Source: an uncultured Chloroflexia bacterium (GTDB taxonomy: Bacteria > Chloroflexota > Dehalococcoidia > Dehalococcoidales > RBG-16-60-22). From it: a DNA stretch of 64,000 bases. Positions within the stretch are counted from its first letter, which is position 1. Every line of letters starts with the position of its first letter. The DNA lies in NCBI GenBank assembly GCA_963727315.1, contig CAVSFE010000002.1, positions 407,723-471,722 of the forward strand, in the 5' to 3' direction. Positions 12,384 to 42,560 of the stretch are shown piece by piece. Below the pieces are notes generated by a model. It was given only the letters and a program-made list of their open reading frames with translations, had not been told where the DNA came from and did not search any database. The position numbers and the translations under genes were made by a program.

Positions 12384-14024
12384 TTACTTTTTATGTTGAA
12401 TGCTGGAAAGAGCATCATTCAGACTGACATTAAGTTCGAGCCAGTTGTTGGGGTCGATTTCATTGCTCAGGACCATCTGGTCGTGCACTTTTACGATGCC
12501 GACGTTTACCCACATTTCTTTAACGTAGTTCTGGAATTCCGTCCACATTTGTTTCGCTTTATTGAGGTCAAGTTCCTGGGTCAGGGCTTGATAGAGCTCG
12601 TCGGCTTTAGGGTCGTTCGCGGTGCCGTGCCAACCTGCGGAAGTATATATGTTGCCCGATTGGTAGATGGCGTTAGGCGCCGCAGTATATGCGAACGGTA
12701 AGATATCACCGATGGCTTTCTCTCTTTCATCGGTAAAAATTCCCGCAAATAACAAACGCGACCACACTGCGGATTCGAGAGTAACAATATTGGTCTGGAT
12801 ACCGATATCTGTCCAGTATTTTTGCAGTATTAGCGCGACATCAGGTATCCAGCCGCCCGACGTGATAGGTGTCCAGACGCCGCTGGACGTGATATAAATA
12901 TTAATTACCGGGTCGGCGAATTTATCTGGATACCCGGCTTCTGCCAGTAATGCCCTGGCTCGGGCAGGGTCGTAAGGGTCGGGGGTCCAGGACGGGTCCC
13001 ATCCCCAGCTATTTTCATCCATGAAAAAGCGGCCGCCTGGTTCGGCGAAACCTTTGAAATAGGTGTCGCAAAGCTCCTGCCGATTGATAGCGTAGGATAG
13101 TGCCTGGCGAACCCTTTTATCGGATGTAGGCCCTGTTGTTAACCAGGTGTACTGAAAACTTATGGTTAGTACGTTAGAGACAGGCGATGACTTTGATGCA
13201 TAACCTTCGGAGCTTAGCTTAGCAACCGTGTCAAAAGATAAACCTGTGACGATATCGAGATCACCTCGCCGGAGCATGGCAAAGCGGGTCGCCTCCGAGG
13301 GTATTTCATAGAATACTAATCTCTCGAAAGCGGGTGTGCGTTTCCAGTGGTGCTTCACCGCTTCGAATTCACACACATAATCCGGCGTCAAACTGATGAA
13401 TTTCCACGGTCCCGTCCCAATCGGATGAGCGCGGAAATATTCTATGCCATTTTTTTCGATGTAGTCTTTGGGCAGAATCCTTAAAAATGCGAAAAGTGTA
13501 ATGAGTTGGGGTTCGGGTGTGTTGGTGCCATATACATAGGTATAGGCGTCCGGGGTTTCATCAGAAGCAAAATTCATGCGTAAATAGTATGACCAGGGAT
13601 TGGTCGAATTTTCCGATTTAAACCGATCTAGAGAAAACTTAACATCGGCGGAAGTAAGCGGGTCACCGTTATGGAATGTGATACCCGGGTGGATTTTAAA
13701 TATCCATGTCTTGCCATCCGGGCTTAAGGAGTAATTATCAGCCAGTTCGCCAATAGCATTTCCCTGGGAGTCAAAGGTTAAGAGAGAGTCACACATGGCA
13801 TAGCCGAAGATAGACTCCATCTGGGTGGGGTCCATTGACTCAAAAACAAAATCGGCCATACCGATACGCAGTGTGCCGTACTGGGCTGCTTTAGTCGGTG
13901 CTGCCGAGGGATTATTAGAGGCAACGGGACTGGAAGCCGGTCCATTGCAACTGATAAACCATACTATTATGACTAGAAGCGAAAGGATTCCGGATATATT
14001 TTTTATCTGTTTCGTCATTTGCAT
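12384..14024 (-). CDS. ABC transporter substrate-binding lipoprotein, family 5 (peptide/nickel, DppA/OppA-like), orphan
   Basis: Signal peptide with a lipobox-like ...VWFISCNG. GTLRIGMADF...LLTFDSQGNAIGELADNYSLSPDGKTWIFKIHPGITFHNGDPLTSADVKFS is the SBP_bac_5 pattern. No permease or ATPase gene is adjacent. Confidence 0.8.
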   Translation of the reverse strand: MQMTKQIKNISGILSLLVIIVWFISCNGPASSPVASNNPSAAPTKAAQYGTLRIGMADFVFESMDPTQMESIFGYAMCDSLLTFDSQGNAIGELADNYSLSPDGKTWIFKIHPGITFHNGDPLTSADVKFSLDRFKSENSTNPWSYYLRMNFASDETPDAYTYVYGTNTPEPQLITLFAFLRILPKDYIEKNGIEYFRAHPIGTGPWKFISLTPDYVCEFEAVKHHWKRTPAFERLVFYEIPSEATRFAMLRRGDLDIVTGLSFDTVAKLSSEGYASKSSPVSNVLTISFQYTWLTTGPTSDKRVRQALSYAINRQELCDTYFKGFAEPGGRFFMDENSWGWDPSWTPDPYDPARARALLAEAGYPDKFADPVINIYITSSGVWTPITSGGWIPDVALILQKYWTDIGIQTNIVTLESAVWSRLLFAGIFTDEREKAIGDILPFAYTAAPNAIYQSGNIYTSAGWHGTANDPKADELYQALTQELDLNKAKQMWTEFQNYVKEMWVNVGIVKVHDQMVLSNEIDPNNWLELNVSLNDALSSIQHKK

Positions 14025-28475: not shown

Positions 28476-30131
28476 TCACGGCCACGCCATCTTCGTTAAT
28501 ATAGGGTACATCATAGGGGCAGACGCGAACACAGGTAAGACAGGCTTTACACTTTTCCGCATCCACCTGACAGACAGCGCCACCGACCTCCAGCTGTTGT
28601 TTCGACAGGATAGTTGTGGCTCGCCCCGCGGCTGCCTGCGCCTGTGTATGGTCTCATCAATGAACTTCGGGGAATGGGCCGTGCCACACAGGTATATCCC
28701 CTCCGAAGCAAAGTCAACCGGCGCCAGTTTGACATGGGCCTCGTGGAAGAAACCTTCCTCAGTCAGCGGCACCTTCAGGATTTTGCTCAGTTCTTCATTA
28801 CCTTCAGCAGGGACCATGGGCGTTGCCAGGACCAGAAAATCAGGTGATAGGACAAGCTCCTCACCCAAGATCGGGTCGAAGGCTATAACTTCGAGCTTGC
28901 TATCGATGGCGTTAACCTTGGGTAATTTATCATCGGAATAGCGAATGAACACTATGCCTTTTTTGCGCGCTTCGGTGTAGAGTTCCTCTTTGAAGCCATA
29001 GGTCCGGACGTCTTTGTAGAGTATATAGATATTTGCCTGCGGACTCATTTCTTTTATCTTCAGGGCATTCTTAATGGCAACGGTACAACAAACCCGACTG
29101 CAATACTGGTAATTCTTGCCGGGAGGCCGGGCACATAGAATCATAGCTATATCTTTAGCCGATGCTATTTCTTGGGGAGACGCCACGATTTTCTCTTCAA
29201 GGTCGCTCAAAGTAAGCACCTTTTCATTCTGTCCCAGCAGGTACTCGCTACCCCGGTATTCTTTGGCTCCCGAGGCGACAATGATTACTCCGTGCTCGAC
29301 CAACCGCTGTTTCTGTCCGTTTTCACTGGCGAGGGTGGTTTTAAAATTACCGACAAAACCATCTGTCTTGACCACAACTGTATCCATAAGGACTTCAATC
29401 AGCGGATTTGCCTTGACTCGCCTTTTTAAGGACTCCAGGAAATCCTGGGGGCTCTCCCCGTTAAGAGACAGGTGAATCTTCCTTGTCCAGCCGCCCAGCT
29501 CCTTTTCCCTTTCCACCAGGTATGTCTTGAACCCCTGCTCGGCCAGATTGAGAGCGGCCGTCATACCGGCAACACCGCCGCCAATGACCAGAGCATCATG
29601 ACTGAGCCCCAGGGTCACCTTGTGCAGTGGCTCAAGCAGGGCAACACGGGCTACGGCCATCCGAATTAATTCTTTAGCTTTCTCGGTGGCCTTTTTAGGT
29701 TCACGCATATGGACCCACGAGCACTGGTCGCGGATATTAGCCATCTCAAAGAGGAAGCGGTTAAGTCCGGCTTCCTTTATGGTCTCCTGGAACAGGGGTT
29801 CATGAGTTCGAGGGGTGCAGGAGGCAACCACCACCCGATTAAGGTTATATTCCTTTATCTTTTCCTTTATCTTCTCCTGGGTATCCTGGGAGCAGGTATA
29901 GAGGTTTCTATCAACAAAGACTACATTTGGCAGTGTCGCGGCATAATCCTTTACCTCCGGGACATTGACGTAACCACCGATATTGATGCCGCAATGGCAA
30001 ACGAAGACGCCAATTCTCGGCGGCTCCTTAGAGACATCTTTTTCCGGGGGATATTCCTTCTCTACCGTCAGAGTGTGGCGTGACGAGGCAAGTAAAGCTG
30101 AAGAATTGGCGGCGGCGGCGCTGGCCTGCAT
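28476..30131 (-). CDS. HdrA-like flavoprotein, C-terminal third of a single large gene (true extent about 28396..32812, with frameshifts near 28645 and 30258)
   Basis: GVFVCHCGINIGGYV...ASCTPRTHE...ALVIGGGVAGMTAALNLAEQG... The last ~55 codons of the track ORF are out of frame. The shifted frame reads QAQAAAGRATTILSKQQLEVGGAVCQVDAEKCKACLTCVRVCPYDVPYINEDGVAVIEVAKCRGCGICAAECPQ, with a stop at 28396-28398. Confidence 0.8.
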   Translation of the reverse strand: MQASAAAANSSALLASSRHTLTVEKEYPPEKDVSKEPPRIGVFVCHCGINIGGYVNVPEVKDYAATLPNVVFVDRNLYTCSQDTQEKIKEKIKEYNLNRVVVASCTPRTHEPLFQETIKEAGLNRFLFEMANIRDQCSWVHMREPKKATEKAKELIRMAVARVALLEPLHKVTLGLSHDALVIGGGVAGMTAALNLAEQGFKTYLVEREKELGGWTRKIHLSLNGESPQDFLESLKRRVKANPLIEVLMDTVVVKTDGFVGNFKTTLASENGQKQRLVEHGVIIVASGAKEYRGSEYLLGQNEKVLTLSDLEEKIVASPQEIASAKDIAMILCARPPGKNYQYCSRVCCTVAIKNALKIKEMSPQANIYILYKDVRTYGFKEELYTEARKKGIVFIRYSDDKLPKVNAIDSKLEVIAFDPILGEELVLSPDFLVLATPMVPAEGNEELSKILKVPLTEEGFFHEAHVKLAPVDFASEGIYLCGTAHSPKFIDETIHRRRQPRGEPQLSCRNNSWRSVALSVRWMRKSVKPVLPVFASAPMMYPILTKMAWP

Positions 30132-30246
30132 TACCGTCTCAGGGATGTCCTTGGGTGCCTGAAAAACGCCGGTGACGAAGATGCCTGGACTTGATGTCTC
30201 GACCGGTGAAAATTCTCCGGTCTGGCAGAACCGGTATTTATTGAGG

Positions 30247-31470
30247 TCAATGCCCAGTCTCTCTGGCCAGTTTTACGCCTTTCGCGGATGGCTGGAATCC
30301 TACCGAAAGAACTACCAGGTCGAATTCCTCGTTCTTTAACGTTCCATCTTCTTCAGCAAACCTGAGAAGTAGATTCCCGGTGGCTTTGACCTCTTCGATA
30401 TTAAATACCCTTGACCTCACAAAGCGGACTTTATGTTCTTGTTGCGCGCGATGGTAATACTGCTCATATCCCTTCCCGAAGGTCCTCATATCCATGAAAA
30501 AGATGGTTGTGTCAATCTCCCGACCGGCATGTTCTTTAGCAATGATAGCCTGTTTGATGGCATAGGTGCAGCAAACTGATGAGCAGTAGCCGGCATTGAT
30601 ACTCTCATCCCTGGAGCCAACACATTGAATCCAGGCAATCTTTTGGATGGGTTTCCTGTCCAAAGGCCTGATTAACTCACCTTTAAAAGGCCCGGAAGCG
30701 CTCAGCATGCGCTCAAACATGATGCTGGTAACGACATTCGGATATTTGCCATAGCCATAGTTGGTCAAGGCCGAAGGCTCATATTCGTCAAGTCCAGGAG
30801 ATAGGATGATAGAGCCGACGTTAATATCTACGTATTCATCCTGCATCTCATGGTTGATGGCGTCGGCTTCGCATCTTTCCTCACACTCCCGGCACTCAAA
30901 GCAGCCCTCTATCTGCGAGGCTAAGCAGCGTCTTGCCTCTCTCCGGGCCGCGGCTATAGAATAGACCTGCTCCACCTCTTTAAAGCCTTTGATTCGTCTC
31001 TCTGGCTTCAGCTCTTTACCTTTCACCCTGTTCTTCGAAGGGAAGCGCTTTTTAAGGGCAACAATTTCATTTTTACTGAGTTCTTGCGGGGCTCGGGTAT
31101 CATCTTTGGAGGTTAAAGGCTCTCCTTTGAGATATTCATCGATGGAACGCGCCGCTTTCTTCCCGGCGGCGATAGCCTCAATAACCATGGCCGGACCGGT
31201 AACCACGTCTCCGCCGGCAAAAATACCGTTAATATTGGTAGCTAAAGTGGCTTCATTGACGGCGATTGTTCCCCGCGCGGTTACTTTCAAGCCATTTTTC
31301 CTGGCATAATCAATATCTGGAGCTTGACCCAGAGCCGGAATAACGGTATCAACATCGATGAAGAATTCAGAGCCTTCAATCGGGACAGGGCGACGACGAC
31401 CGCTGTCATCAGGCTCCCCGAGATTCATCTTAATACACTCGATCCTGGTGACCCTGCCTCCTCTCGGCAA
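30247..31470 (-). CDS. middle fragment of the same gene: end of the GltD/NfnB-like NAD(P)H module plus the HdrA core
   Basis: GRVTRIECIKMNLGEPDDSGRRRP...FAGGDVVTGPAMVIEAIAAGKKAA (GltD-like), then CFECRECEERC, CVGSRD...YCSSVCC (HdrA-like). The start and end are both created by frame changes. Confidence 0.8.
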   Translation of the reverse strand: MPRGGRVTRIECIKMNLGEPDDSGRRRPVPIEGSEFFIDVDTVIPALGQAPDIDYARKNGLKVTARGTIAVNEATLATNINGIFAGGDVVTGPAMVIEAIAAGKKAARSIDEYLKGEPLTSKDDTRAPQELSKNEIVALKKRFPSKNRVKGKELKPERRIKGFKEVEQVYSIAAARREARRCLASQIEGCFECRECEERCEADAINHEMQDEYVDINVGSIILSPGLDEYEPSALTNYGYGKYPNVVTSIMFERMLSASGPFKGELIRPLDRKPIQKIAWIQCVGSRDESINAGYCSSVCCTYAIKQAIIAKEHAGREIDTTIFFMDMRTFGKGYEQYYHRAQQEHKVRFVRSRVFNIEEVKATGNLLLRFAEEDGTLKNEEFDLVVLSVGFQPSAKGVKLARETGH

Positions 31471-32812
31471 TTACCCGGGTGGGGTTAGCCAGAAACATGA
31501 TATCGATGCCTTCTTCCTCGGCGGCCCTGACCTCCTCATCGCTGGCCGGCATCTCCGAACGGGAACGCCGGTAGATGACTTTCACTTCGGCGCCCAATCT
31601 CCTGGCCACGCGGGCGGCATCCATCGCCGCATTACCGCCGCCAATAACTGCCACCCTTTTACCGACATCGACTTTTTCTCCCGAGTTGACTTTTCGCAGA
31701 AATTCGACGGCATGGACGACGCCGGCAGAATCCTCTCCGGGGATACCCAGCCTCAGACTTTGATGGGCGCCTGAGGCAATGAAAATAGCTTGATAGTCCT
31801 GCCTGAGCTGTTCCAGCGTTATCTCTTTGCCTACTTTAACCTTCGTCTTTATGTTTACCCCTAATTTCTCGATATAGCCTATATCCCTGGCGAGTATGTC
31901 CTTGGGGAGTCTATATGCAGGTATTCCGTATCTGAGCATGCCCCCTGGCTCAGGCAAGGCCTCATAAATGGTCACCTCATAACCTTCGAGGGCCAGATCA
32001 TGCGCTGCCGCCAGACCCGCCGGACCACTCCCGATGATAGCCACCTTCTTACCATTCCTGGTTATCTGAGGGACTTCGTAGTTCTCAATATCAATTTGGT
32101 CGGTAACGAATCTTTTTAAAGCACGAGAAGCAACAGGTTCATCAAGCTGCCCGCGATTGCAGGCTTCTTCACAGGGCGCGTAGCAAACCCGACCGCAGAT
32201 GGCTGGTAGAGGATTGGTACTCCTGATCAAGGCATAGGCTTCTTTGAACATTCCCTCGGCAACCAAAGCCGCGTAACCTTGAACATTCATGTGGATGGGG
32301 CAGGCATCCTTACAAGCGGCATGACAGGGTCTTTCTTCTCTTTTATCGATGGCGTATGTCCTGGGTACTGCTTGAAGATAAGGTGTATAAATGGCTTTCC
32401 TGGTTCCCAGCCCTTCGTCAAAGGCACTCGGCATGATAATAGGGCATCCCTCGGCACATACTCCGCAGCCGGTACATTTAGCACCGTCAACGAATCTGGC
32501 CTTTTTCTTAACAGAAACAGTAAAATTCCCGGGCTTACCCCGGACACCAAGGACTTCTGAATATGTTAGAAGGTCGATGTTAAGATGTCTCCCGCACTCC
32601 ACCAGTTTGGGAGAGAGAATACACATAGAACAATCATTGGTGGGTAGAGTTTTGTCAAGCTGAGCCATCACGCCGCCAATGGCGGGGGAATCCTCTACAA
32701 GGTAGACTTTATACCCGGACTCAGCGAGGTCGAGGGCTGATTGAATCCCGCCGACACCCCCACCAACGACAAGTACCGCCCCTATTTTTTCGCTTGCCAC
32801 CGTCTTGTCCAC
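31430..32812 (-). CDS. N-terminal fragment of the same gene: HdrA N-terminus with an inserted GltD-like Fe-S/FAD/NAD(P) module
   Basis: AVLVVGGGVGGIQSALDLAESGYKVYLVE...LPTNDCSMCIL...CTGCGVCAEGCP (HdrA). Then NPLPAICGRVCYAPCEEAC, VAIIGSGPAGLAAAHDLA and VAVIGGGNAAMDAA (GltD/NfnB-like). Confidence 0.8.
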   Translation of the reverse strand: MDKTVASEKIGAVLVVGGGVGGIQSALDLAESGYKVYLVEDSPAIGGVMAQLDKTLPTNDCSMCILSPKLVECGRHLNIDLLTYSEVLGVRGKPGNFTVSVKKKARFVDGAKCTGCGVCAEGCPIIMPSAFDEGLGTRKAIYTPYLQAVPRTYAIDKREERPCHAACKDACPIHMNVQGYAALVAEGMFKEAYALIRSTNPLPAICGRVCYAPCEEACNRGQLDEPVASRALKRFVTDQIDIENYEVPQITRNGKKVAIIGSGPAGLAAAHDLALEGYEVTIYEALPEPGGMLRYGIPAYRLPKDILARDIGYIEKLGVNIKTKVKVGKEITLEQLRQDYQAIFIASGAHQSLRLGIPGEDSAGVVHAVEFLRKVNSGEKVDVGKRVAVIGGGNAAMDAARVARRLGAEVKVIYRRSRSEMPASDEEVRAAEEEGIDIMFLANPTRVIAERRQGHQDRVY

Positions 32813-32865
32813 TTTTCCCCATCCTGATTTCAGCTGGGGGCTATTCTCGATTTTTGCTGAATCTA

Positions 32866-33435
32866 TTATGCTAAAGCCGCTTCTATTGCTTGCACTATAT
32901 CCTTGTTGTCAAAAAGGCTCATGGCAATTGCCCCGGCCGGACAAGCCGCACTACACACGCCGCAGCCGCGGCACGATTCAATAACAAGGTGAACAGTATA
33001 TTTATCATCCTTTGTTTCCAGCTTAAGCGCTTCGAAGGGGCATGTTGATACACAGATACCGCAACCCGAGCATAAGTCTTCATTGATGGACAAAGGAAGA
33101 GTGTATCCTTCTTTGGTCGCCAGGTGTTTCAGGATATCCCAGACAACGGAAAACTTGACTTTCTGCGGGCAGTTTTTCTCGCATAGAAAACACTCAGAAC
33201 AATACCAGATATAAGGGCTACTTAAGACTTTATTTCGCATACCTAGGTTAAGCATCCTGACTATTTTCCTCGGGTCATGCTCGGGGTATATTTCATGAAT
33301 GGGACAGGCAGCGGTGCAGGTTCCACAGGTAAAGCAAGCAGTAGCGTCATTAATAATATCGCCAGCGGCTACCTCAAACTTAAAATTACGGTCAAGTTCC
33401 GATACTCTAACTGGCTTAGGTGCTGAAATCTCCAT
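32866..33435 (-). CDS. HdrC-like 4Fe-4S dicluster protein with an extra ferredoxin domain
   Basis: CFTCGTCTAACP...CSECFLCEKNCP (HdrC-like spacing), then CSGCGICVSTCP...CRGCGVCSAACP. Confidence 0.7.
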   Translation of the reverse strand: MEISAPKPVRVSELDRNFKFEVAAGDIINDATACFTCGTCTAACPIHEIYPEHDPRKIVRMLNLGMRNKVLSSPYIWYCSECFLCEKNCPQKVKFSVVWDILKHLATKEGYTLPLSINEDLCSGCGICVSTCPFEALKLETKDDKYTVHLVIESCRGCGVCSAACPAGAIAMSLFDNKDIVQAIEAALA

Positions 33436-33984: not shown

Positions 33985-34003
33985 TCCCGTATGCGCTACC
34001 AAT
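33985..34003 (+). repeat. direct repeat copy 2 (attR-like core) TCCCGTATGCGCTACCAAT
   Basis: Exact 19/19 match to 11508-11526. It is not part of a tRNA here. Confidence 0.85.
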
Positions 34004-34035
34004 AACCAAACCAACAATCTTAAAAGGAGATATAA

Positions 34036-34524
34036 ATGGCGAAGAAGAAGTACGCAAAATACGTGTTCTCCGGGTTCAGGGAGGAAATGAACCTACCGTT
34101 CATCGCCAAGCCGCAGGCATATTTCCGGGGGGCCAGTCAAATACCGGGGGCGGGTGTCAACATGGGGTGGCAACTGTTTATCAAGCCGATATTGCTGGAA
34201 ACGGAGCCTCATACCCATAACGCCGACGAATACCTGATTTTCCTGGGCCATGACCCCGCCGACTGGTTCAGCAGCTTTGACGCGGAGATCGATTTATTCA
34301 TCGGGGAGGAGATGGAAAAATATCTCATCGACAAGCCGACGATTGTCTATATTCCGCCCAATCTAACCCACTGCCCGCTTGACTTCCGGGTCATCAACAA
34401 GCCCGTGCTGTTCACGGCGCTGCTACAGACGCCGATATTTACCAAGACGATGAAGGGAAAGGAATATAAGTTCGACGGACCGGACGCCAAGGGCAATATC
34501 TCCGGGGAGATGTCTAAAATATAA
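34036..34524 (+). CDS. small cupin-like hypothetical protein (paralog family with 41636..42079 and 42072..42560)
   Basis: ...ETEPHTHNADEYLIFLGHDPADWFSSFDAEIDLFIGEEMEKYLIDKPTIVYIPPNLTHCPL... shares the H.H...DE....G.DP......GEIE...G.......VP.G..H.P pattern with the other two. Confidence 0.6.
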   Translation: MAKKKYAKYVFSGFREEMNLPFIAKPQAYFRGASQIPGAGVNMGWQLFIKPILLETEPHTHNADEYLIFLGHDPADWFSSFDAEIDLFIGEEMEKYLIDKPTIVYIPPNLTHCPLDFRVINKPVLFTALLQTPIFTKTMKGKEYKFDGPDAKGNISGEMSKI

Positions 34525-34562
34525 CTGGCGCGTGACCCAAGTATGCGCAGACTATCTTCATG

Positions 34563-36134
34563 CTAAGATACCTGATATTCATAGCGCGTCGAAGCGTCAA
34601 AGACGCAATAGATGTGCCGGCGCCCCTCCACGATATGGAGCACCGGCTTGAGAAGGCCTTCCCCCGTCCTGACCAGGTCGTCCAGTGAATTCAGCCGAAC
34701 AACCGTATCGCCAGGTTTAACCTCGGGCAACTCTTTTATCTCCACGATAATGTTCTTATATTTCTTCTGTACCTGCTGCGCTTCCTTTTCCCCGGCGGTG
34801 AGCTCGCCCGGGCGCCGCCAGAAGTACCACAAAAGGGCGAAGACGAACAAAACGAGGATAACGCCGGCGACGATAGGAAGCAGTATCCTGGCCCGTGAGA
34901 CAGACACCCGCAGATATTTCTCAGCCTGATGAACGACCCTGGTCGACTTGATAGATCCCTGCAAAGACTGGGTCAGGTTGCCGCTCCAGACAAGCGTGTC
35001 TCCCGCCAGATCCGCGCTAATGCTCGGCGTGAAATTGGCATCTATTGGCCCGGAATCCGTATCGGCCAAAGTATGGACCTCTGCCCTGATAGTGAGATTG
35101 CGGGCCGTTGCAGAAACCCCCGTTTCCCGCTGAATGGAATTAAATAGCTCGGAGTAGCTTTCCAGGTCGAGGGGAAAGGTGACGGTAAAGTCCCCGCTCT
35201 TATCGATCCGGGGGACAAGCTCAATAGTCTTCGACCATTTTTCCGGAGCCTGCAAAATGGCGTCTACAACCACCGTTTCATCAAGCTTCTTGACTGGCTG
35301 GCTTGATACCAGGTGGTAAGAAAAGGTCACGTCCACGGCATCGATAAGCCGGGATATGATAATGTCCCCGGGACCAGCGATTTCAGGCGCGGGAGGGGTC
35401 GGCGGTATCACGGAGGGAGGCTTCAGGACTATCGCGCCAAAAGGGGAATCAGGCTTGAGGAAAACCTCATAATCGAATGCCCCCTGCTGCTCGTAATTCA
35501 AGTCGCCGACATAACCGGGGGTAGCCTGGGCTAAATCCCCCTGCACCTCAAGAAGCGGCCCTCTCAAGCGCATCGGCAGGGTCTGGGTAAAGCTCTCGAA
35601 CACCGGCCCAGTGTCCGTGTTAACGACAGCGTAGACGCTGGCGGTGATAGTAATGGCGCTGCCCGAGGCATTGTCGCCGAAAATGACGTAACCGGCCGAA
35701 ACATTGGCAGTGATGTCCAGGGGGAAGCTAACCGTGAAATCGCCCGTTTCCGAGGTAACGGGCACGAGGACGATTTCCTGCTGCTCCGAAGCCACGGAGC
35801 TTGGCACCACCGCCCTGACCTCGACTTCCTCAGACGTTCCCGATACCGGCCCGTCAGGCACGAACCTGTAGCTGAAAGAGAGGTCGAAGCGGTCGATAGA
35901 CGCCGCGGGGTATTTCATAAGGTCGGGGGGAGGCGGCGTCTCCTGGGGCGCGGTGCCATAAAGGTACGAAGGCTTTAGAGTAACCTGATAGTCAAAAGTG
36001 CCCTGGTTATCATAATCGAGCAGCGTCACTTCCTCGGTCACGGCTTTCTCCGCAGGCAGGCCGTAGACCTGGTAAATACCAACCAGCGAAGCGACCAGCA
36101 AGATAAAAGTGACGATGATAAGGGCTATTTTCAT
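34563..36134 (-). CDS. bitopic membrane protein with an internally duplicated extracytoplasmic domain (DUF5305-like), linked to SipW/TasA
   Basis: An N-terminal TM, two ~190-aa repeats (each ...YDNQGTFDYQVTLKP.../...YEQQGAFDYEVFLKP..., ...GDFTVSFPLD.../...GDFTVTFPLD...), a C-terminal TM (ILLPIVAGVILVLFVFALLWYFW) and a ~90-aa cytoplasmic tail. Confidence 0.55.
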   Translation of the reverse strand: MKIALIIVTFILLVASLVGIYQVYGLPAEKAVTEEVTLLDYDNQGTFDYQVTLKPSYLYGTAPQETPPPPDLMKYPAASIDRFDLSFSYRFVPDGPVSGTSEEVEVRAVVPSSVASEQQEIVLVPVTSETGDFTVSFPLDITANVSAGYVIFGDNASGSAITITASVYAVVNTDTGPVFESFTQTLPMRLRGPLLEVQGDLAQATPGYVGDLNYEQQGAFDYEVFLKPDSPFGAIVLKPPSVIPPTPPAPEIAGPGDIIISRLIDAVDVTFSYHLVSSQPVKKLDETVVVDAILQAPEKWSKTIELVPRIDKSGDFTVTFPLDLESYSELFNSIQRETGVSATARNLTIRAEVHTLADTDSGPIDANFTPSISADLAGDTLVWSGNLTQSLQGSIKSTRVVHQAEKYLRVSVSRARILLPIVAGVILVLFVFALLWYFWRRPGELTAGEKEAQQVQKKYKNIIVEIKELPEVKPGDTVVRLNSLDDLVRTGEGLLKPVLHIVEGRRHIYCVFDASTRYEYQVS

Positions 36135-36168
36135 GTCAATAAGGCTGTTCTCTAGATTTTTCCCGCGA

Positions 36169-36846
36169 CTATCCCGCCGTAAGGGTGTAAATCATGCTGA
36201 GCACGAAGGTATCGCCCTGGAATTCGTTGCCGGCATTCTCATGGAACTTAACGCTCATTTCAAAGTCGGCTTTATCATCGGGGCAGGACGGAAGATTTTT
36301 CAGAGGCCTTTGCTTGAGGTCAGCGAAGGTTATCCTCCCATCCCGATCAACATCCTGAATCTGCCAGTCCTTGCTGGTCAGTACAGAGCTATATCCTTTC
36401 CCCGTTGTCCTGGTAGCTTTGCCGGTCAGACAGTTGATCTGCCATACCTCATTTTTACAGGTATATTCGTAGATGCACCTGGTAATGACCATATATTTCG
36501 CCATCCTGTCCGGCTGGGCAGGCGCCCAGGAGTTATACTGGCAGGTTATCCCCAACTCCCCTTTATCGACCTTGCGAGGGAACTGAGCGGATAAGCCGAC
36601 AAAGCAGCCGTTAAAGGCAAACTCGTCGCCCGGCGCCATGTTGCTGGCGGTCCACGTCGCATGGACGCCGTCCCTCCAGGTCTCATTCTGGTCACATATC
36701 TTCAGGTCGAGCGGCTGCACCTGTCCGGGGTGATAGGGAGGACAATAAGGGGGCACATAACAGGCATAGGCCGCGCCGATGGAACCGCTGGCGAAAACAA
36801 CGGCCATCGCGACCAGAAGAACGATTTTTAACTTAGCACGCGGCAT
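36169..36846 (-). CDS. secreted TasA/camelysin-like protein, variant with a Cys/Pro-rich N-terminus and an EF-hand loop
   Basis: Signal peptide, then YACYVPPYCPPYHPG. TasA-like motifs are MAPGDEFAFNGCF and the C-terminal NEFQGDTFVLSMIYTLTAG. DVDRDGRITFAD fits DxDxDGxIxxxD. Confidence 0.55.
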   Translation of the reverse strand: MPRAKLKIVLLVAMAVVFASGSIGAAYACYVPPYCPPYHPGQVQPLDLKICDQNETWRDGVHATWTASNMAPGDEFAFNGCFVGLSAQFPRKVDKGELGITCQYNSWAPAQPDRMAKYMVITRCIYEYTCKNEVWQINCLTGKATRTTGKGYSSVLTSKDWQIQDVDRDGRITFADLKQRPLKNLPSCPDDKADFEMSVKFHENAGNEFQGDTFVLSMIYTLTAG

Positions 36847-36913
36847 TAAATTCCCCTGACCGTTTATATTATAATGCGCATTACCATAAAAGCAATCAGA
36901 CCGACTTCCTATC

Positions 36914-37525
36914 CTATCTTATAAAAGCCTTCCTTTGCTTCATTAATCTTTCGCGTCGCCGCTTGAGAGCTTCCTGTCGACGCTTTTCTTCCGGATGGAG
37001 CGCTTCGCGCAGGGCATCTTTGAGAGTCAAGGCGATGAAAGCCAGACCGAGCGGCAGAACCACCAGCACCGCCACCGGCAGCCCTCTCCCCAGGACGTTG
37101 ACCCGCTGCCGGCCAAACTCGGCGAGCCGGGCCAGATTACCGATATAGGGCAGGTATAATACCTCTTTCCCGGCGACGGCCCCAGCCGGGACGGGGTTGA
37201 GGTCGGGCTCTTCGTTGGCGTCACCCTGGGTCCGGAAGACGCGGCCGGCACCGGTCTCCTGTACGTCGATAACGCGGTGGCAGATGGGCGTATTGATGCC
37301 CGGAAGCTTGAAGGAGATGACGTCTCCAATTTTGACCTGCTGGACGTCCACAGGCTTAATAACGACCAGGCCCCCGACCGCCAGCGCCGGCTCCATGCTG
37401 CCGGAGAGCACGGCATCGAACTCCCAGCCGTACTGCGCCGCGATCAAGACGAAGGAGACAACCAGGAGCACCAGCGCCAGCGCCGCCCAGACGAGCCATG
37501 CTAGCAGTTTACTTATTATTTTCAC
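36914..37525 (-). CDS. sipW: signal peptidase I, SipW/archaeal-ER type (S26B)
   Basis: N-terminal TM, SGSMEP (catalytic Ser), ...ICHRVI... (His), GDAN and a C-terminal TM. Confidence 0.8.
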   Translation of the reverse strand: MKIISKLLAWLVWAALALVLLVVSFVLIAAQYGWEFDAVLSGSMEPALAVGGLVVIKPVDVQQVKIGDVISFKLPGINTPICHRVIDVQETGAGRVFRTQGDANEEPDLNPVPAGAVAGKEVLYLPYIGNLARLAEFGRQRVNVLGRGLPVAVLVVLPLGLAFIALTLKDALREALHPEEKRRQEALKRRRERLMKQRKAFIR

Positions 37526-37659
37526 TCCTATGCTGTTGATTATTTATAATAACACTTTGTTTTGTTGAGGGGGCGCCCCGCGCGGTGGGGCGCCCCGTTA
37601 TTTTTAACAGGCTGAGATAAGCTCAGCTTCAGGCTTGGTTAGACTTTATCTGACGCTGT

Positions 37660-38466
37660 TTACGGGCCTAGAGTTGCATCAAGCAAGGATTCGACCAGTT
37701 GATCGTCAGGATAAGCATCTCTCGCAGAACCGATAAAATCAACCTCGAACGTAGCCGTATCGCCCTGATAAGCATTGGTTACCGCTGTTGATAGCTGAAA
37801 CGTGAATTTGAAGCATGCAATAGAACCGGCGGGTAAAGCCGGGTTGGGGAAGTAGGCTGGGTCATTCAACAACAAGAGGGATGTAACATGGTCACCGCTG
37901 CCGTAATTCCTGGCATACCACAAGTCCCAAAGAGAAATCTCGCCGTCCAGAGCGAAGCCCGCTGGTGACGCTGAGTTCCAAGATGTGGATCCATTCCAAT
38001 AAGCCAGAAAAGCGTTGGCGGTGCTTGTGTCGAATACAGTGTGTTGATACCAAATGCCTCCGTTATTGCTTTCATCAACGGATTTGAGTATGAGATATTT
38101 CGAGATGTCGTTAATAGTGTCACCAGGATCTACAGCTGCTTCCGCGTCGGTATAAGCTCCGCCGCCTTCGACAAGGTTGCAGAAACGAGCCCATATCCAT
38201 CTGATGTCCATGGTGCCTACATTCTTAAGATACACCACGCCGGTTGTAAACTCTTGGCCCGGGGCAAGGTTGGCGGGCGAGTTGAAACTTGCACTAACAC
38301 CATTGTTAGTATAACCTTCGTCGTTGTCGGCTATTTGCAGGTCTAGCGTTCCGGCCCCCATGACGTTGCCCGTGCTCTTCTCCACATCCGTAAAGTAGGC
38401 GAAGGCGCCGCCCACTATACCCAGGCAGAGCACACATGCCATTAACGTGAAAAGTAGTTTCTTCAT
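37660..38466 (-). CDS. TasA/camelysin family secreted protein (SipW-type signal peptide)
   Basis: MKKLLFTLMACVLCLGIVGGAFAYFTDVEKSTGNVMGAGTLDL is the classic AxA-YFTD SipW-dependent N-terminus. LAPGQEF...YLKNVG and C-terminal NAYQGDTATFEVDF are also present. Confidence 0.8.
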   Translation of the reverse strand: MKKLLFTLMACVLCLGIVGGAFAYFTDVEKSTGNVMGAGTLDLQIADNDEGYTNNGVSASFNSPANLAPGQEFTTGVVYLKNVGTMDIRWIWARFCNLVEGGGAYTDAEAAVDPGDTINDISKYLILKSVDESNNGGIWYQHTVFDTSTANAFLAYWNGSTSWNSASPAGFALDGEISLWDLWYARNYGSGDHVTSLLLLNDPAYFPNPALPAGSIACFKFTFQLSTAVTNAYQGDTATFEVDFIGSARDAYPDDQLVESLLDATLGP

Positions 38467-38620
38467 TTTTCCTTTTTCTCCTTTGTTTGTTTTTTATTTT
38501 TATAGTTTTACCGGTCTTTCCCGTTTGCCACCGGGTCTTTTCCCCGGCGCCATTTGCTCCCGTGGCTGAACTCACTTCAGCCCACCCATCGATTTCTCGA
38601 TACAACCACCTCCTTTTTTA

Positions 38621-39280
38621 TTAAGTCGACTGGTCGCCCCCGGAAAAGCCATAGCCCACGCCCCTCACGCCGAATATCTTAAAGCCGGACAGCTTGCGGC
38701 GCAGGCGCCGTACATAGTAATGGAGATTGTCCAGGCTGATGTCTTTCCCTCCCCACACCTCAGTAATAAGCTGCGGGTAGTCAACGAGCCTGCCCTCGTT
38801 GGAGAGCAGACAGTTACCGAGACGGCACTCGATAGGGCTGAGGCCTTCCGTGCCGGCCTCCGGGCGGATATGGCTCTCGACCCCAACCCCGGTGCCCCCG
38901 GGAGGGTCGTCATCGCCCCGGTGTTTAAGCAGGGAATTCACCCTGGCCACCACCTCCCGACCGCTCGGCGGACTAATGATGCAGGCATCCACCCCGAGCT
39001 CAAGCATCTCCACCACCTCCTCGCGGCGGCCGATGGCAATCAGAGGCAAATAGCTCGCCTGGCGCAGGCGCAGACAGGCATCCTCCCCGTTCACCGACGG
39101 CAGGTCGGTGCTGGCAATGACCACGTCGGGATGCAGGCCGTATATCTTTTTCAAGCCGTCAGCAGCGTCGGCCGCTTCGACCACCTCATAACCCGCCTCC
39201 CGCAAAGCCTCGACGGCCTCAACCGAAGACGCCCTGTCCTTCTCCACAATGAGAACCACGGCTTTTTTCATGGCAAACAC
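38621..39280 (-). CDS. OmpR/PhoB-type regulator with a degenerate receiver domain
   Basis: C-terminal winged helix: LSPIECRLGNCLL...YYVRRLRRKL...RGVGYGF. The receiver positions read EKD (not DD), VVIASTDLP (Ser where the phospho-acceptor Asp aligns) and ISPP (no KPF Lys). Confidence 0.7.
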   Translation of the reverse strand: MFAMKKAVVLIVEKDRASSVEAVEALREAGYEVVEAADAADGLKKIYGLHPDVVIASTDLPSVNGEDACLRLRQASYLPLIAIGRREEVVEMLELGVDACIISPPSGREVVARVNSLLKHRGDDDPPGGTGVGVESHIRPEAGTEGLSPIECRLGNCLLSNEGRLVDYPQLITEVWGGKDISLDNLHYYVRRLRRKLSGFKIFGVRGVGYGFSGGDQST

Positions 39281-39466
39281 CCGAAAATCAACCCAACTCT
39301 ATCACGCCAACGTGGATATTCGGGTGCTCAAAGTGCCTGATAAAGTGGAAATTGGTGCCATTTCGGTGGCAAATCGGTACAAAAATGACGAAAAGGAACA
39401 AACGGTGATAAAAGGAAAAATCAGAAATGAAGTCGAGAAACGGCTATATCAGGTAAGCCGATAGAT

Positions 39467-40159
39467 TCAGACTTCCGGCCTGACGAACCGATAGCCTACT
39501 CCCCGTTCGCTGAGGAGCATGCGGGGATTCTCCGGGTCCGGCTCGAGCTTGGAACGGAGACGGTAAATATATTTCTTGACAAAGGTATGGTCGTCAGTAT
39601 ACTCCGAGCCCCAGACCCTTTCCAGCAGCAGGCTGTGGGGTAAGACCCGCCCCTCATTCTGGGCCAGTTCCGTCAGCAGGCTGTACTCGTGGGGGGTAAG
39701 CCGGACAGGCCGGCCGGCCAGCGAGACATGGCGCGTGCTGAAATTAATAGTCAGCTCACCGGCGGAAAACATATGTTCGTGCTTGTAGCCGAGCCCGTGA
39801 GCGCGGCGCAACAACGCGGTCACCCTGGCGACCAGCTCGATGGGACTGAACGGCCTGTGGATATAGTCGTCGGCCCCCGCCTCCAATACCATCGCCCGGT
39901 CAATATCGCTTTCTCCCGCAATCAGGACGAGCAGAGGGACATCAAAGAACCGGCGAATCTCGCCGATAACGCCGGTGATATTTATTTCCGGCAAAGACGA
40001 CGAAATCAAGATAAGGTCCGGCAGCTCGGCCTCAATCACCTTCACCGACTGGACCCAACGGGACGAAGACACGGTAACGACCTCCGGGTACCGCACCGCC
40101 AGACAGAAAGCGATGTTATTGACGGCCTGCTGGTCGTCCTCAATGATGAGGACTTTCAT
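39467..40159 (-). CDS. OmpR/PhoB-type regulator with a degenerate receiver domain
   Basis: Winged helix: LTPHEYSLLTELAQNEG...YIYRLRSKLE...RGVGYRF. The receiver reads LILISSSLP (Ser at the acceptor position), VLIAG (no Thr/Ser) and IHRPF (Arg for Lys). Confidence 0.75.
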   Translation of the reverse strand: MKVLIIEDDQQAVNNIAFCLAVRYPEVVTVSSSRWVQSVKVIEAELPDLILISSSLPEINITGVIGEIRRFFDVPLLVLIAGESDIDRAMVLEAGADDYIHRPFSPIELVARVTALLRRAHGLGYKHEHMFSAGELTINFSTRHVSLAGRPVRLTPHEYSLLTELAQNEGRVLPHSLLLERVWGSEYTDDHTFVKKYIYRLRSKLEPDPENPRMLLSERGVGYRFVRPEV

Positions 40160-40545
40160 GCCCTTACCTCTATCTATTAGTTAAGTCGGGGGGGGATTTA
40201 CCTAAAAGTACATAAAATGAACCTACAGGTACAAAGAGGGGAAAAAGACTTTTATAATACATACGCCGTCATAATAATTTGGCTAAATAGTTAATGTCAA
40301 GTAATTTTTTTAACTTTTCCTCCCAATCTAGTACTTTATGCCTAGTACCGATGGCCATGGCCACACCAATTCTTACAGGATTTTGCCAATTGACATATTT
40401 TTTTCCGATAATATATAATAATGTGTAAAGTTGCCAATTTATGAAGGATTTTTCCTACATACAAATTAAAATACTTATTATATAATTACAAATATTAGTG
40501 ATTTTTTAACATATCGCGGTCGTCGTTCATGATACTATTATACTT

Positions 40546-40920
40546 ATGACCAATAAAGATTCAGCCTTTGTATCCTTCTTAAAGGAAGTCATGCGGCGGC
40601 ACCAGCGCAAGCCCAGTCAGCTGGCGGCCGAACTGGGCATCAGCCATGCCACGGTAAGCCGCTGGCTTTCGGGCAGGGACATACCGAACACCCGTTCCTG
40701 CCAGAGACTGGCCGACTACAGCGGGGTACCGGTCCAGAAGGTCCTGGCGATTGTCGGCCACATTCCCAGAGTAGCCGAGAAACCGGCCGCAGAGTGGCCC
40801 GAGTTCCGAGAGTATGCTCTCAACAAATATCCAGCCGAGCTGGATGAAGACCTGATTACCATGATTGAGGACTTAATCGAACGGCGCAGAGCGAAAAAAT
40901 ATGGAGAGAAAGACTCCTAG
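40546..40920 (+). CDS. XRE-family helix-turn-helix protein
   Basis: KPSQLAAELGISHATVSRWLSGRDIPN is an HTH_3-type motif. Confidence 0.75.
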   Translation: MTNKDSAFVSFLKEVMRRHQRKPSQLAAELGISHATVSRWLSGRDIPNTRSCQRLADYSGVPVQKVLAIVGHIPRVAEKPAAEWPEFREYALNKYPAELDEDLITMIEDLIERRRAKKYGEKDS

Positions 40921-41608
40921 TTGGGAATCTGAACTCTGGTCATATCTTAGTTGCGGAGACGGCACCAACTGCCCGATGTACTCATCCTGCCAGCTCAGGG
41001 GAGGCAACGTCAGGTGTTTCAGCGAAAACCTGGGATATTACAGGCTGGTGAATGAGTTCATTGACGAAGACGGGTTCGAGCTTAGCAATCCGTCAGGTGA
41101 AAAATTCGTATTCTCCACGTGCCCCGGCAGCGGGAGGATTTTCCAACTCGTCAGAAGACTAGCTCAAAGATATATTAACGAGGCGGGGATTAATCAACCG
41201 CCCGTTCCAACCAGCCTCATCACTCGTTCCAACGGCAATATCCCCATCGAAGTACGGAAGGTGCCGCTGAAGGCTTACCGCGGCGCCGTCTGGCGGCTGA
41301 GCAACTGCTGGGTGGTCCAGCTTAACAGCAACGACCCAACAGCCCGACAGAGGTTCACGCTATACCACGAGATTTTCCATATCCTGGCGCACAGCAAAGC
41401 GACTCCCGTGTTCAAAAAGGCAGGCTGCGACCTGGAAGGCTCTTTCAACGAGATGTTGGCCGACCATTTCGCCGCCGCCTGTCTTTTACCCGATAAACTG
41501 CTGAAGAAAATGTGGACCAGGATAAAAGACGTAAACAGGATGGCAACGGTCTTCGACGTTCCCCGGCCGGTAGTGTGGCTATCGCTCAAGATCCTGGGCC
41601 TGACTTAA
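40901..41608 (+). CDS. ImmA/IrrE-family metallopeptidase
   Basis: HEXXH is present as FTLYHEIFHILAH. It overlaps the XRE gene by 20 nt, which is the typical XRE-ImmA pairing. Confidence 0.7.
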   Translation: MERKTPSWESELWSYLSCGDGTNCPMYSSCQLRGGNVRCFSENLGYYRLVNEFIDEDGFELSNPSGEKFVFSTCPGSGRIFQLVRRLAQRYINEAGINQPPVPTSLITRSNGNIPIEVRKVPLKAYRGAVWRLSNCWVVQLNSNDPTARQRFTLYHEIFHILAHSKATPVFKKAGCDLEGSFNEMLADHFAAACLLPDKLLKKMWTRIKDVNRMATVFDVPRPVVWLSLKILGLT

Positions 41609-41635: not shown

Positions 41636-42079
41636 TTATTGATATTTCTTGCCCATGCCAGCGGTAAAGTGGAACATCGGCTTATCGATGCGCCTGATGT
41701 TTATCGGCCCGTGCTCGACGCCGGCGGGGACGAAGGCGATAAAGCTCTTATCGATGAAGTTCTGCTTGCCGTCGATCCATATTTCTATTTCGCCGTTGAG
41801 GTTGTAAGGGTCTTCAGGGTCGGAGCCGACCCAGGCGATGGTCTCATCGTAATCATGGCGATGCGCCCCGACGGTGCGGTTCTTGAGCCCTCCCGTTTTC
41901 TCCGGCCAATCACCGGGGAAGAACCATGCGGTCTCCATATAGAACGCCCCTTTTTTCACGTCGCTGTCCAGGGAAAGCAGTCGCCGCGCCTCGTTATCCG
42001 CGAACACGGGCGTCCAGGGTGAGTCGCCGACGACGTCCCGCAACTCCGTCACGAAGTATTTTTTGTCCCATTTAGCCAT
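41636..42079 (-). CDS. small cupin-like hypothetical protein
   Basis: The ATG at 42079 (MAKWDKKYF...) follows GGAGCAGGAAAC. HRHDYDETIAWVGSDPEDPYNLNGEIEIWIDG...VPAGVEHGP. The track ORF start (42145) overlaps the upstream paralog. Confidence 0.6.
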   Translation of the reverse strand: MAKWDKKYFVTELRDVVGDSPWTPVFADNEARRLLSLDSDVKKGAFYMETAWFFPGDWPEKTGGLKNRTVGAHRHDYDETIAWVGSDPEDPYNLNGEIEIWIDGKQNFIDKSFIAFVPAGVEHGPINIRRIDKPMFHFTAGMGKKYQ

Positions 42080-42560
42080 GTTTCCTGCTCCTTTCCTTTC
42101 TCTTCCGGTGCCCGCCGGGGTCGGCCTGCGCCAAAGAGCCGGCACCCACCATTATCGTGAACTCCAGGTGAGGCCGACTGTACTTTTTCCAGACCAGCGG
42201 CCCGTGCTTAACGCCCTTGGGCACGTACACTGCCGAGGTCTTATTGATGATGAGCGGCTGCCCGTCCACCATGAACTCGATTTCCCCGCCCAGCTCCTCC
42301 TGGTTCTCGGGGTCGGTGCCAAGATGGATAACGATTTCGTCGTAGTCGTGCACGTGCTCGTGGATATGGGGGTTGGGGTCGGGCATGCCGAACACCCAGC
42401 CTGTTTCGATATAAAAATTGCTGCCCGGTACTAGGTTATTGCTCATCAGGGTCATGGCCGGCCGCCGCCCCTTCACATCTTCTACAGGCACGACCTCATA
42501 GGCGGGTCGGTTTACAAAGTGTTTTTTCGCATCGTATTTTTTTATGGCTTTCTTCGGCAT
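42072..42560 (-). CDS. small cupin-like hypothetical protein (tandem paralog)
   Basis: HIHEHVHDYDEIVIHLGTDPENQEELGGEIEFMVDG...VPKGVKHGP. Confidence 0.6.
   Translation of the reverse strand: MPKKAIKKYDAKKHFVNRPAYEVVPVEDVKGRRPAMTLMSNNLVPGSNFYIETGWVFGMPDPNPHIHEHVHDYDEIVIHLGTDPENQEELGGEIEFMVDGQPLIINKTSAVYVPKGVKHGPLVWKKYSRPHLEFTIMVGAGSLAQADPGGHRKRKERSRKHG

Follow-up and report, generated by a model that had tools for sequence, protein, structure and literature searches.

TasA-type fibres form the main protein scaffold of Bacillus biofilms, and since 2022 they have been recognized as one branch of a superfamily of donor-strand-exchange filaments that extends over bacteria and archaea. Dehalococcoidales-like bacteria are important in subsurface and organohalide environments, and their surface structures are poorly known. 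We analyzed a stretch of 64,000 nucleotides from an uncultured bacterium of this kind (contig CAVSFE010000002.1 of assembly GCA_963727315.1, positions 407,723 to 471,722 of the forward strand; hereafter the window). Four of its genes, at positions 34563-38466, probably form an operon whose product is a secreted fibre or matrix protein of the TasA superfamily.

In Bacillus subtilis, the donor strand of TasA comprises residues 28-38, and F29, I32, and F39 pack into the subunits that follow; deletion of the donor-strand segment abolishes the fibres (PMC9674648). The haloarchaeal Tafi loci encode the pilins TafA, TafC, and TafE, the peptidase TafD and the DUF5305 protein TafG, and related clusters of subunit, peptidase, and DUF5305 genes occur in Thermococcus, Archaeoglobus, and Pyrococcus; TafG has been proposed to help the peptidase, and peptidase-DUF5305 fusions exist in bacteria, including the Chloroflexota genus Tepidiforma (PMC11821415, PMC12337348). 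The AbpX loci of archaea and bacteria combine a TasA-superfamily major subunit with predicted minor or tip subunits, a signal peptidase I, and a DUF5305 protein; the paper that describes them names Chloroflexota as hosts, cites a fusion in Anaerolinea thermophila, and proposes an involvement of calcium (bioRxiv 10.64898/2026.01.04.697558). In both the Tafi and the AbpX papers, which date from 2025-2026, DUF5305 is proposed to be an accessory subunit of the signal peptidase rather than an anchor (PMC11821415, PMC12337348, bioRxiv 10.64898/2026.01.04.697558). Homologs matching PF12389, the Pfam family of TasA and camelysin, had already been noted in Chloroflexota and Patescibacteria (PMC9245690). 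A literature search for TasA with the stem Dehalococcoid- and for SipW with the stem Chloroflex- turned up no paper on a locus like this one from these bacteria.

The four genes of the window, which we call g1 to g4, are as follows:

37660-38466, minus strand: g1, 268 amino acids (aa), candidate major fibre subunit of the TasA/camelysin family
36914-37525, minus strand: g2, 203 aa, SipW-like signal peptidase I of the endoplasmic reticulum (ER)/archaeal type (S26B)
36169-36846, minus strand: g3, 225 aa, divergent TasA-superfamily subunit
34563-36134, minus strand: g4, 523 aa, DUF5305 membrane protein

The gaps between g1 and g2, g2 and g3, and g3 and g4 measure 134, 67, and 34 nt. An earlier note on this DNA, made from the letters and open reading frames (ORFs), had described four co-directional genes of a SipW/TasA-type secreted-fibre locus. 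All four ORFs indeed lie on the minus strand, and the motifs quoted in that note were all found: GGAFA-YFTD in g1, SGSMEP and CHRVI in g2, and GTFDYQVTLKP/GAFDYEVFLKP and GDFTVSFPLD/GDFTVTFPLD in g4. The identification of the locus is borne out by family matches to g1, g2, and g4 and by profile homology of g3: searches with hidden Markov models placed g1 (PF12389), g2 (TIGR02228), and g4 (PF17231, DUF5305) above the curated cut-offs, so that these family memberships are established.

The proposed TasA/camelysin-like nature of g1 and its SipW-dependent N-terminus both agree with the model scores. PF12389 (Peptidase_M73/camelysin/TasA; Pfam) matches g1 with 36.7 bits against a cut-off of 22.5 (E 5e-9), and TIGR04088 (cognate_SipW, the SipW-dependent-type signal peptide; NCBIfam) matches residues 10-41 with 28.2 bits against 19. 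Because the score of the TasA equivalog BioflmMtrxTasA (NF046066), 20.8 bits, does not reach its cut-off of 450, g1 is, as judged from these models, a member of the TasA family rather than a TasA ortholog. The database search found 88 homologs of g1, nearly all of which contain PF12389. A PDB search with the single g1 sequence gave chance-level matches only, and a g1-family profile built from 40 homologs matches B. subtilis TasA (8AUR/5OF1) nearly end to end (E 3e-6), its positions 30-239 aligning with positions 6-207 of the TasA chain. The signal peptide of g1 comprises aa 1-23, with a putative cleavage after A-F-A, and is followed by the predicted donor strand, aa 24-40 (YFTDVEKSTGNVMGAGT; 38347-38397). 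F25, V28, and V35 of g1 (segment YFTDVEKSTGNV) align with the hydrophobic donor-strand residues F29, I32, and F39 of TasA, and F25, D27, and N34 are invariant across the 40 homologs. The C-terminus carries a conserved acidic tail, YPDDxLxES, and g1 and g3 both end in an N-x-[FY]-Q-G-D-T strand.

The second gene encodes an ER/archaeal-type signal peptidase, as the SGSMEP and CHRVI motifs had suggested. The archaeal-type signal peptidase I model TIGR02228 (NCBIfam) scores 102.1 bits on g2 against a cut-off of 51.85, whereas the bacterial-type model TIGR02227 stays below its own (22.9 bits vs. 47). The SipW equivalog NF046067 aligns over the full length (residues 1-186 with positions 1-182 of 189), but with 84.6 bits it does not attain its cut-off of 190, and g2 is therefore, on this comparison, SipW-like and not a SipW ortholog. 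Its closest solved relatives are human SEC11C (E 8e-11) and SEC11A (E 4e-9), in which SGSMEP, VHRV, and GDNNEVDD align with SGSMEP, CHRV, and GDANEEPD of g2. The catalytic type is thus Ser-His(-Asp) instead of Ser-Lys, with the serine of SGSMEP, His83, and Asp102/108 as catalytic residues, and the motifs are kept in 10 orthologs. The catalytic domain of g2 lies externally between an N-terminal and a C-terminal transmembrane (TM) helix, the latter followed by a conserved, very basic cytoplasmic tail. The orthologs begin further downstream, which leaves the start codon of g2 uncertain by about 13 codons.

No Pfam or NCBIfam family recognizes g3, which showed no match to PF12389 or TIGR04088 at E values up to 1; a PDB search with the single sequence gave matches at chance level, and the g3-family profile met solved structures only in weak matches to EF-hand loops. 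The relationship emerges when families are compared: the g3-family profile aligns with the g1-family profile with a probability of 99.9% (hhalign; E 5e-31, 205 columns), and the first 73 residues of g1 and g3 are similar (E 5e-8). Of 78 homologs found for g3, the closest lack a Pfam domain, and nine of the 10 most distant (P0069-P0078) contain PF12389, one of them (P0076) being named "TasA family protein." The AlphaFold2 model of g3, made with 44 sequences, is beta-rich (mean pLDDT 75.7, pTM 0.72). The second, divergent TasA-like protein of the earlier note is accordingly retained: judged by profile homology, and with weak support from structure prediction, g3 is a divergent member of the TasA superfamily.

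In g4, PF17231 (DUF5305) matches residues 313-520 with 74.7 bits against a gathering threshold of 29 (E 1e-20). Residues 39-209 and 212-395 share 34% identity over 188 positions (E 3e-24), which establishes the internal duplication of the ectodomain that had been claimed for this 523-aa membrane protein. In the AlphaFold2 model (43 sequences, pLDDT 82.7) the following parts, all encoded on the minus strand, can be distinguished:

aa 2-25: first transmembrane segment (TM1), AlphaFold2 helix
aa 29-209 (35508-36050): beta-sandwich repeat 1
aa 212-404 (34923-35501): beta-sandwich repeat 2
aa 412-438 (34821-34901): second transmembrane segment (TM2), AlphaFold2 helix
aa 447-522 (34569-34796): cytoplasmic alpha/beta domain

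Basic residues after TM2 would place the C-terminal domain in the cytoplasm, by the positive-inside rule. The second TM segment announced in the earlier note is therefore present, but the about 75 residues of its "cytoplasmic tail" are predicted to fold into an alpha/beta domain. DUF5305 proteins have been described as a TM segment, an external beta-sandwich, a second TM segment, and a cytoplasmic alpha/beta domain (bioRxiv 10.64898/2026.01.04.697558), and g4 follows this architecture save that its external sandwich is doubled. Full-length homologs of 500-560 aa form at least 120 clusters at 90% identity. An exhaustive search with repeat 2 and the C-terminus of g4 retrieved 1276 clusters at E values up to 1e-3; among the best 150 of these, most are 500-560 aa long with two matched stretches, some are 330-376 aa long with one, and some reach 610-845 aa with three to five. 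As the long proteins carry only DUF5305 in Pfam, they look like proteins with extra repeats and not like peptidase fusions. The doubled ectodomain is common and not peculiar to this genome, the copy number ranging from one to about five. A scan of a genome collection with the g4 protein found nothing.

The gene order is conserved in relatives. We scanned contigs carrying homologs with profiles made from the genes of the window, and a narrow alignment against a genome collection gave six loci. Two response regulator (RR) genes, one to four TasA-like genes, peptidase, g3, and DUF5305 follow one another in this order in at least seven metagenome loci of Dehalococcoidales. The loci compare as follows:

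Window: RRa, RRb, one TasA-like gene, peptidase, g3, DUF5305
L007: order of the window, with two TasA-like genes; g4 78% identical
L002: order of the window, with three TasA-like genes, one of them a 154-aa mini version
L003 and L004: order of the window, with four TasA-like genes
L012: at least four TasA-like genes; the contig ends upstream
L008, L009, and L010: partial views of the order of the window
L005, L006, and L013: peptidase directly upstream of DUF5305 (33-47% identical), preceded by several secreted TasA-like proteins

L004, L008, L009, L010, and L012 are labeled as Dehalococcoidales or Dehalococcoidaceae. The four genes are thus co-conserved in the same order across Dehalococcoidales loci, a co-occurrence that the earlier note had proposed as a check. 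Of these versions of the locus, that of the window is the smallest, and the variable part is the major-subunit gene: in the closest relative, L007, two subunits of 215-216 aa are about 37% identical to g1, and the peptidase, g3, and DUF5305 proteins are 70-80% identical to their counterparts. DUF5305 and peptidase genes share one operon at all loci examined and are immediate neighbors in L005, L006, and L013. L005 and L006 have a different two-component pair. Two further observations concern the distant loci. The peptidase beside DUF5305 in L013 (5746-6921, in a metagenome-assembled genome labeled "Deltaproteobacteria") is 391 aa long; it is extended at the N-terminus by a long multi-TM region, lacks the basic tail at the C-terminus, and resembles the many-TM peptidase reported for AbpX loci. 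In L006, an ORF of 130 aa (12059-12451), 2.4 kb downstream of the full DUF5305 gene, matches only the end of DUF5305 ectodomain 2 and TM2 (E 2e-29; profile positions 352-469) and probably represents a gene fragment.

A g3-type gene occurs once, and only once, in every close locus, where it invariably separates the peptidase gene from DUF5305. The distant L006 and L013 also have, beside the peptidase gene, one subunit devoid of the canonical N-terminal motif. The g3 protein has a signal peptide with an A-Y-A site, of which A28 is invariant. The canonical donor motif, (Y/W)F-x-D-x-E-T-S-x-G-N, is missing from it: at the place of the donor strand, aa 29-45 (36712-36762) form a Pro/Cys-rich segment, CYVPPYCPPYHPGQVQP, with six prolines in 17 residues, the same length as the corresponding segment of g1. 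Only 10 outgroup homologs of g3 keep a proline-free YFxDxETSxGNxxxAG. The 16 closest homologs have one to eight prolines per 13-21 residues at this place (at least four in 13 of them), and intermediate homologs have a polar, N/S/D-rich stretch of low complexity. The donor-strand motif has been lost in g3; the signal peptide and the rest of the protein, including the C-terminal strand motif NEFQGDTF, are well conserved.

Within the fold of g3 lies a loop, DxDxDGxIxxxD (aa 165-176; 36319-36354), whose residues D165, D167, D169, G170, I172, and D176 reproduce exactly the EF-hand/dockerin pattern. Of 44 sequences, 42-44 conserve each of D165, D169, G170, I172 (counting I, V, or L), and D176, and 36 conserve D167; a short helix, residues 174-179, follows the loop in the AlphaFold2 model with pLDDT >90. 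The counterpart in g1 is degenerate (LDGEISLWDL), and related loops occur in short paralogs of 215-221 aa at other loci. The g3 protein also holds nine cysteines, of which C102, C124, and C139 are kept in 37, 32, and 24 of 44 homologs; conserved cysteines are unusual in a secreted protein of a strict anaerobe. We rejected the idea that g3 is a lipoprotein, as a Cys follows the A-Y-A site in only 19 of 44 homologs.

These data suggest the following scenario, which is drawn largely from the analogy with B. subtilis TasA. The g1 protein would be exported by the Sec pathway with its SipW-type signal peptide and cleaved by g2 after A-F-A, which would free the N-terminal strand YFTDVEKSTGN...; this strand would then enter the beta-sandwich of a neighboring subunit by donor-strand exchange, and a fibre would grow. 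Given the Pro-rich segment at its donor place, g3 would accept a strand but probably could not give one. A subunit with a groove and no strand would fit, if the polarity is that of TasA, only at the fibre end where no donor strand is needed, so that we infer for g3 the role of a terminal subunit, cap or tip. Tip subunits of chaperone-usher fibres, such as FimH, likewise have an acceptor groove and no donor strand and occupy one fibre end. The parallel with g3 is one of analogy only, as there is no homology, no chaperone or usher, and no separate adhesin domain in g3. The g4 protein, with two external beta-sandwiches between its TM segments and a cytoplasmic domain, would most likely serve as an accessory of g2 or as an assembly platform; its partnership with g2 is the role proposed for DUF5305 proteins in the literature.

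Several observations weigh against parts of this scenario. The PF12389 match is confined to residues 2-90 of g1, and both fibre formation by g1 and the entry of g3 into the fibre are predictions by analogy with TasA. The fold of g3 may be compatible with the TasA-like jelly-roll named in the earlier note: its model is beta-rich, and Foldseek ranks first a pilin of the TasA superfamily, the bundling pilin AbpA (7UEG; probability 0.99); this match is weak (E 2.4e-3, TM-score 0.33-0.39), and the Foldseek list contains CanA cannula subunits, with TasA missing from the top matches. A Pro-rich N-terminus is no proof that g3 is unable to donate a strand. The EF-hand_1 model of Pfam matches g3 below threshold (E 0.029), and the calcium-type loop is a candidate site by pattern match alone. 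For g4, a Foldseek search of the whole model against the PDB returned no subunit of a signal peptidase complex, the matches being unrelated tandem beta-sandwich proteins such as arrestin/VPS26 and viral gB (TM-score 0.06-0.21); moreover, in the window g3 separates the peptidase gene from DUF5305, which are not directly adjacent.

Of the alternatives, the one that survives best makes g4 mainly a membrane anchor or an usher-like platform, which would hold the cell-proximal fibre end, where the acceptor groove is empty; the number of sandwiches would set the distance from the membrane at which assembly occurs. The modeled layout, with two beta-sandwiches outside and a folded domain inside, would suit this role, as would the one to about five ectodomain copies across the DUF5305 family and the position of g3 immediately beside g4 in all close loci. 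In addition, no gene in 34-41 kb matches a TapA model in Pfam or NCBIfam, so that a TapA-like anchor gene is missing, and Dehalococcoidia are not known to have a peptidoglycan wall to which a fibre could be anchored. On the other hand, the published peptidase-DUF5305 fusions and the duplicated peptidase/DUF5305 gene pairs favor a peptidase role, no strand-donating motif was identified in g4, and the fold search was uninformative. We regard the anchor as possible but unlikely to be the main function of g4; the anchor and peptidase-accessory roles are compatible with each other.

A second alternative, which we consider doubtful, is that g3 is not a cap but a nucleator, or a chaperone-like binder of the freed g1 strand, or else a separate calcium-dependent surface protein that shares the peptidase. 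The conservation of its fold body and signal peptide beside a freely variable donor segment is consistent with such roles, and so is its presence as a single copy per locus, beside the membrane components. The minor partner of TasA in B. subtilis, TapA, acts as a nucleator (PMC9674648), which counts in favor of this view; but TapA nucleates by donating a strand, precisely the part that g3 has lost, and a groove without a strand fits only one end of a fibre of TasA polarity, where a cap and a starter look alike to the methods used here.

One may also imagine, quite speculatively, that the peptidase and DUF5305 form an usher-like complex in which cleavage is coupled to strand insertion, that the number of sandwiches sets the height of assembly, and that a calcium-binding g3 caps the fibre and so fixes its polarity or length. 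We hold this full combination to be improbable, and we know of no TasA-type fibre for which such a capping subunit or such a role of DUF5305 has been shown.

Much less credible is a reading in which g1 and g3 are secreted but not fibrous, either as metalloproteases of the camelysin type or as monomeric surface or S-layer-associated proteins. The Pfam family, Peptidase_M73, is indeed named after camelysin. But neither translation contains an HExxH-type zinc motif, the donor-strand motif and hydrophobic pattern of g1 are conserved, and the solved superfamily members that we found (TasA, AbpA, and CanA) all form filaments; a metalloprotease function of g1 in particular is rejected, given the lack of a zinc motif and the full-length homology to TasA. 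Finally, the idea that g1 is the precursor of a ribosomally synthesized and modified peptide, which its JGI name ([quoted passage not shown]) evokes, can be dismissed almost outright, because that name derives from the N-terminal signal model TIGR04088 alone, g1 has 268 aa with full-length TasA homology, and the locus contains no modifying enzyme.

The fibre-operon scenario is the one we favor, and the region upstream of g1 and the g1-g2 gap contain elements that may regulate the operon:

38621-39280, minus strand: RRb, OmpR-family response regulator, 219 aa (Pfam)
39467-40159, minus strand: RRa, OmpR-family response regulator, 230 aa (Pfam)
38467-38620, minus strand: conserved leader/promoter region of 154 nt between RRb and g1
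37570-37596, minus strand: GC-rich stem-loop GGGGCGCCCC-N7-GGGGCGCCCC, 12 pairs, within the g1-g2 gap
40546-40920, plus strand: XRE-type helix-turn-helix (HTH) gene, 124 aa (Pfam)
40901-41608, plus strand: ImmA/IrrE-type Peptidase_M78 gene, 235 aa, overlapping the HTH gene (Pfam)

RRa and RRb precede g1 on its strand, and their synteny extends to all close loci (RRb in L002, L003, L004, and L007). We aligned them with E. coli PhoB. The phospho-acceptor position (D53 in PhoB) is a serine in RRa (LISSSLP), in RRb, and in all six orthologs (L002, L003, and L007). RRb has an aspartate two residues past this position and a serine at the place of the conserved lysine of PhoB, which is variable among the orthologs; the receiver and winged-helix domains are otherwise present in both proteins. 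Given the serine in place of the acceptor aspartate, and given that no histidine kinase gene adjoins RRa or RRb in the window, they look like phosphorylation-independent regulators.

The leader has the core GCAAATGGCGCCGGGGAAAAGACCCGGTGGCAAACGGGAAAGACCGG and was recovered with nhmmer in L002, L003, L004, L007, and L014, the last being a metagenome contig. It contains an imperfect direct repeat, GGGAAA(A)GACC, at a distance of 21-22 nt (reported by the program in L002, seen by eye in the others), which would suit winged-helix regulators. An Rfam scan of 34000-40600 gave only a chance snoRNA match, and the leader fits no family. A metagenome scan with the leader core returned 111 stretches, one of which (L014) has the extended leader; a riboswitch-like element is unsupported, as this one added example is too few for an analysis of covariation. 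The stem-loop in the g1-g2 gap is not followed by a T-run on the coding strand, a T-run being found on the opposite strand only. In L002, L003, L007, and L012, most TasA-like genes have a comparable GC-rich hairpin behind them, the one nearest the peptidase gene without exception. The g1-g2 hairpin is a candidate attenuator or mRNA stabilizer by which the subunit mRNA would be kept in excess. In the scenario outlined above, RRa, RRb, and the conserved leader would probably control expression, and the hairpin after g1 would probably keep the subunit mRNA abundant.

The HTH/Peptidase_M78 pair is divergent from the fibre genes. L002, L007, and the distant L005 and L006 have it near the locus too; by synteny, it is possibly a regulatory module of the fibre genes. 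The HTH gene recalls the arrangement in Bacillus, where sinR, the gene of the XRE-type repressor SinR, stands next to the tasA operon. Three paralogs of about 162-169 aa flank the locus (34036-34524, plus strand; 41636-42145 and 42072-42560, both minus strand) and are probably unrelated to the fibre genes. The two upstream copies (41636-42145 and 42072-42560) show weak cupin matches, and the copy downstream of g4 (34036-34524) shows no Pfam match; an ORF of 162 aa occupies the same place in L007. Just downstream of the locus, at 28476-33435 on the minus strand, the translations, with many Cys-cluster motifs, suggest a run of genes for HdrA-like flavoprotein and ferredoxin-type proteins.

Such a locus represents a minimal system, in which the major subunit, the peptidase, the donor-less subunit, and the DUF5305 protein are each encoded once. 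The four-gene set could suit a reconstitution of assembly and tests of the donor-less subunit and of DUF5305, and it bears on how TasA-type fibres start, end, and attach to cells.

With the tapA-sipW-tasA operon of B. subtilis, the locus shares a TasA-family subunit with a SipW-type signal peptide and a dedicated Ser-His signal peptidase with two TM helices encoded in the operon, and g1 shares with TasA the donor-strand hydrophobic pattern and the C-terminal N-x-Y-Q-G-D strand. Unlike the Bacillus operon, which is devoid of DUF5305, the locus of the window has such a gene. In Bacillus the minor partner, TapA, supplies a strand, whereas g3 is a TasA paralog without a donor strand, and the regulators here differ from those of the Bacillus operon in being OmpR-type proteins that lack the acceptor aspartate.

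Tafi loci resemble the present one in their major and minor TasA-superfamily subunits, dedicated signal peptidase I, DUF5305 protein, and transcription regulators. However, Tafi subunits use the Tat pathway, whereas g1 (MKKLLFTLMAC...) and g3 (MPRAKLKIVLL...) have no RR (twin-arginine) motif; TafD has four TM segments and an extra domain, against the two TM helices of g2; the DUF5305 match of TafG spans, by its description, residues 132-349, whereas the ectodomain of g4 is duplicated; and the hosts are haloarchaeal there and bacterial here.

The AbpX loci have in common with the window a major TasA-superfamily subunit, minor or tip subunits, a signal peptidase I, and a DUF5305 accessory protein. 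They differ in their peptidase, for which ten TM helices are reported instead of two, a long multi-TM peptidase being found among our loci only in the distant L013. By sequence, g1 is nearest to TasA proper, and the calcium-type DxDxDG loop of g3 lies inside the fold and not at the donor-strand interface.

The statement of the earlier note that a system of this composition is not characterized therefore holds with respect to experiments, but the cluster type has already been described from genomes, with mention of Chloroflexota. Possibly new are a clade of g3 proteins that lack the donor-strand motif and conserve a calcium-type loop, the variation in DUF5305 ectodomain copy number, the aspartate-less regulator pair with its conserved leader, and the GC-rich hairpins after subunit genes. 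The locus fits the general class defined by the Tafi and AbpX papers and is not a new kind of system; within that class it stands outside the three known types, differing from Tafi in having no Tat signal, from AbpX in its two-TM peptidase, and from Bacillus in the absence of TapA and in the sub-equivalog scores of g1 and g2.

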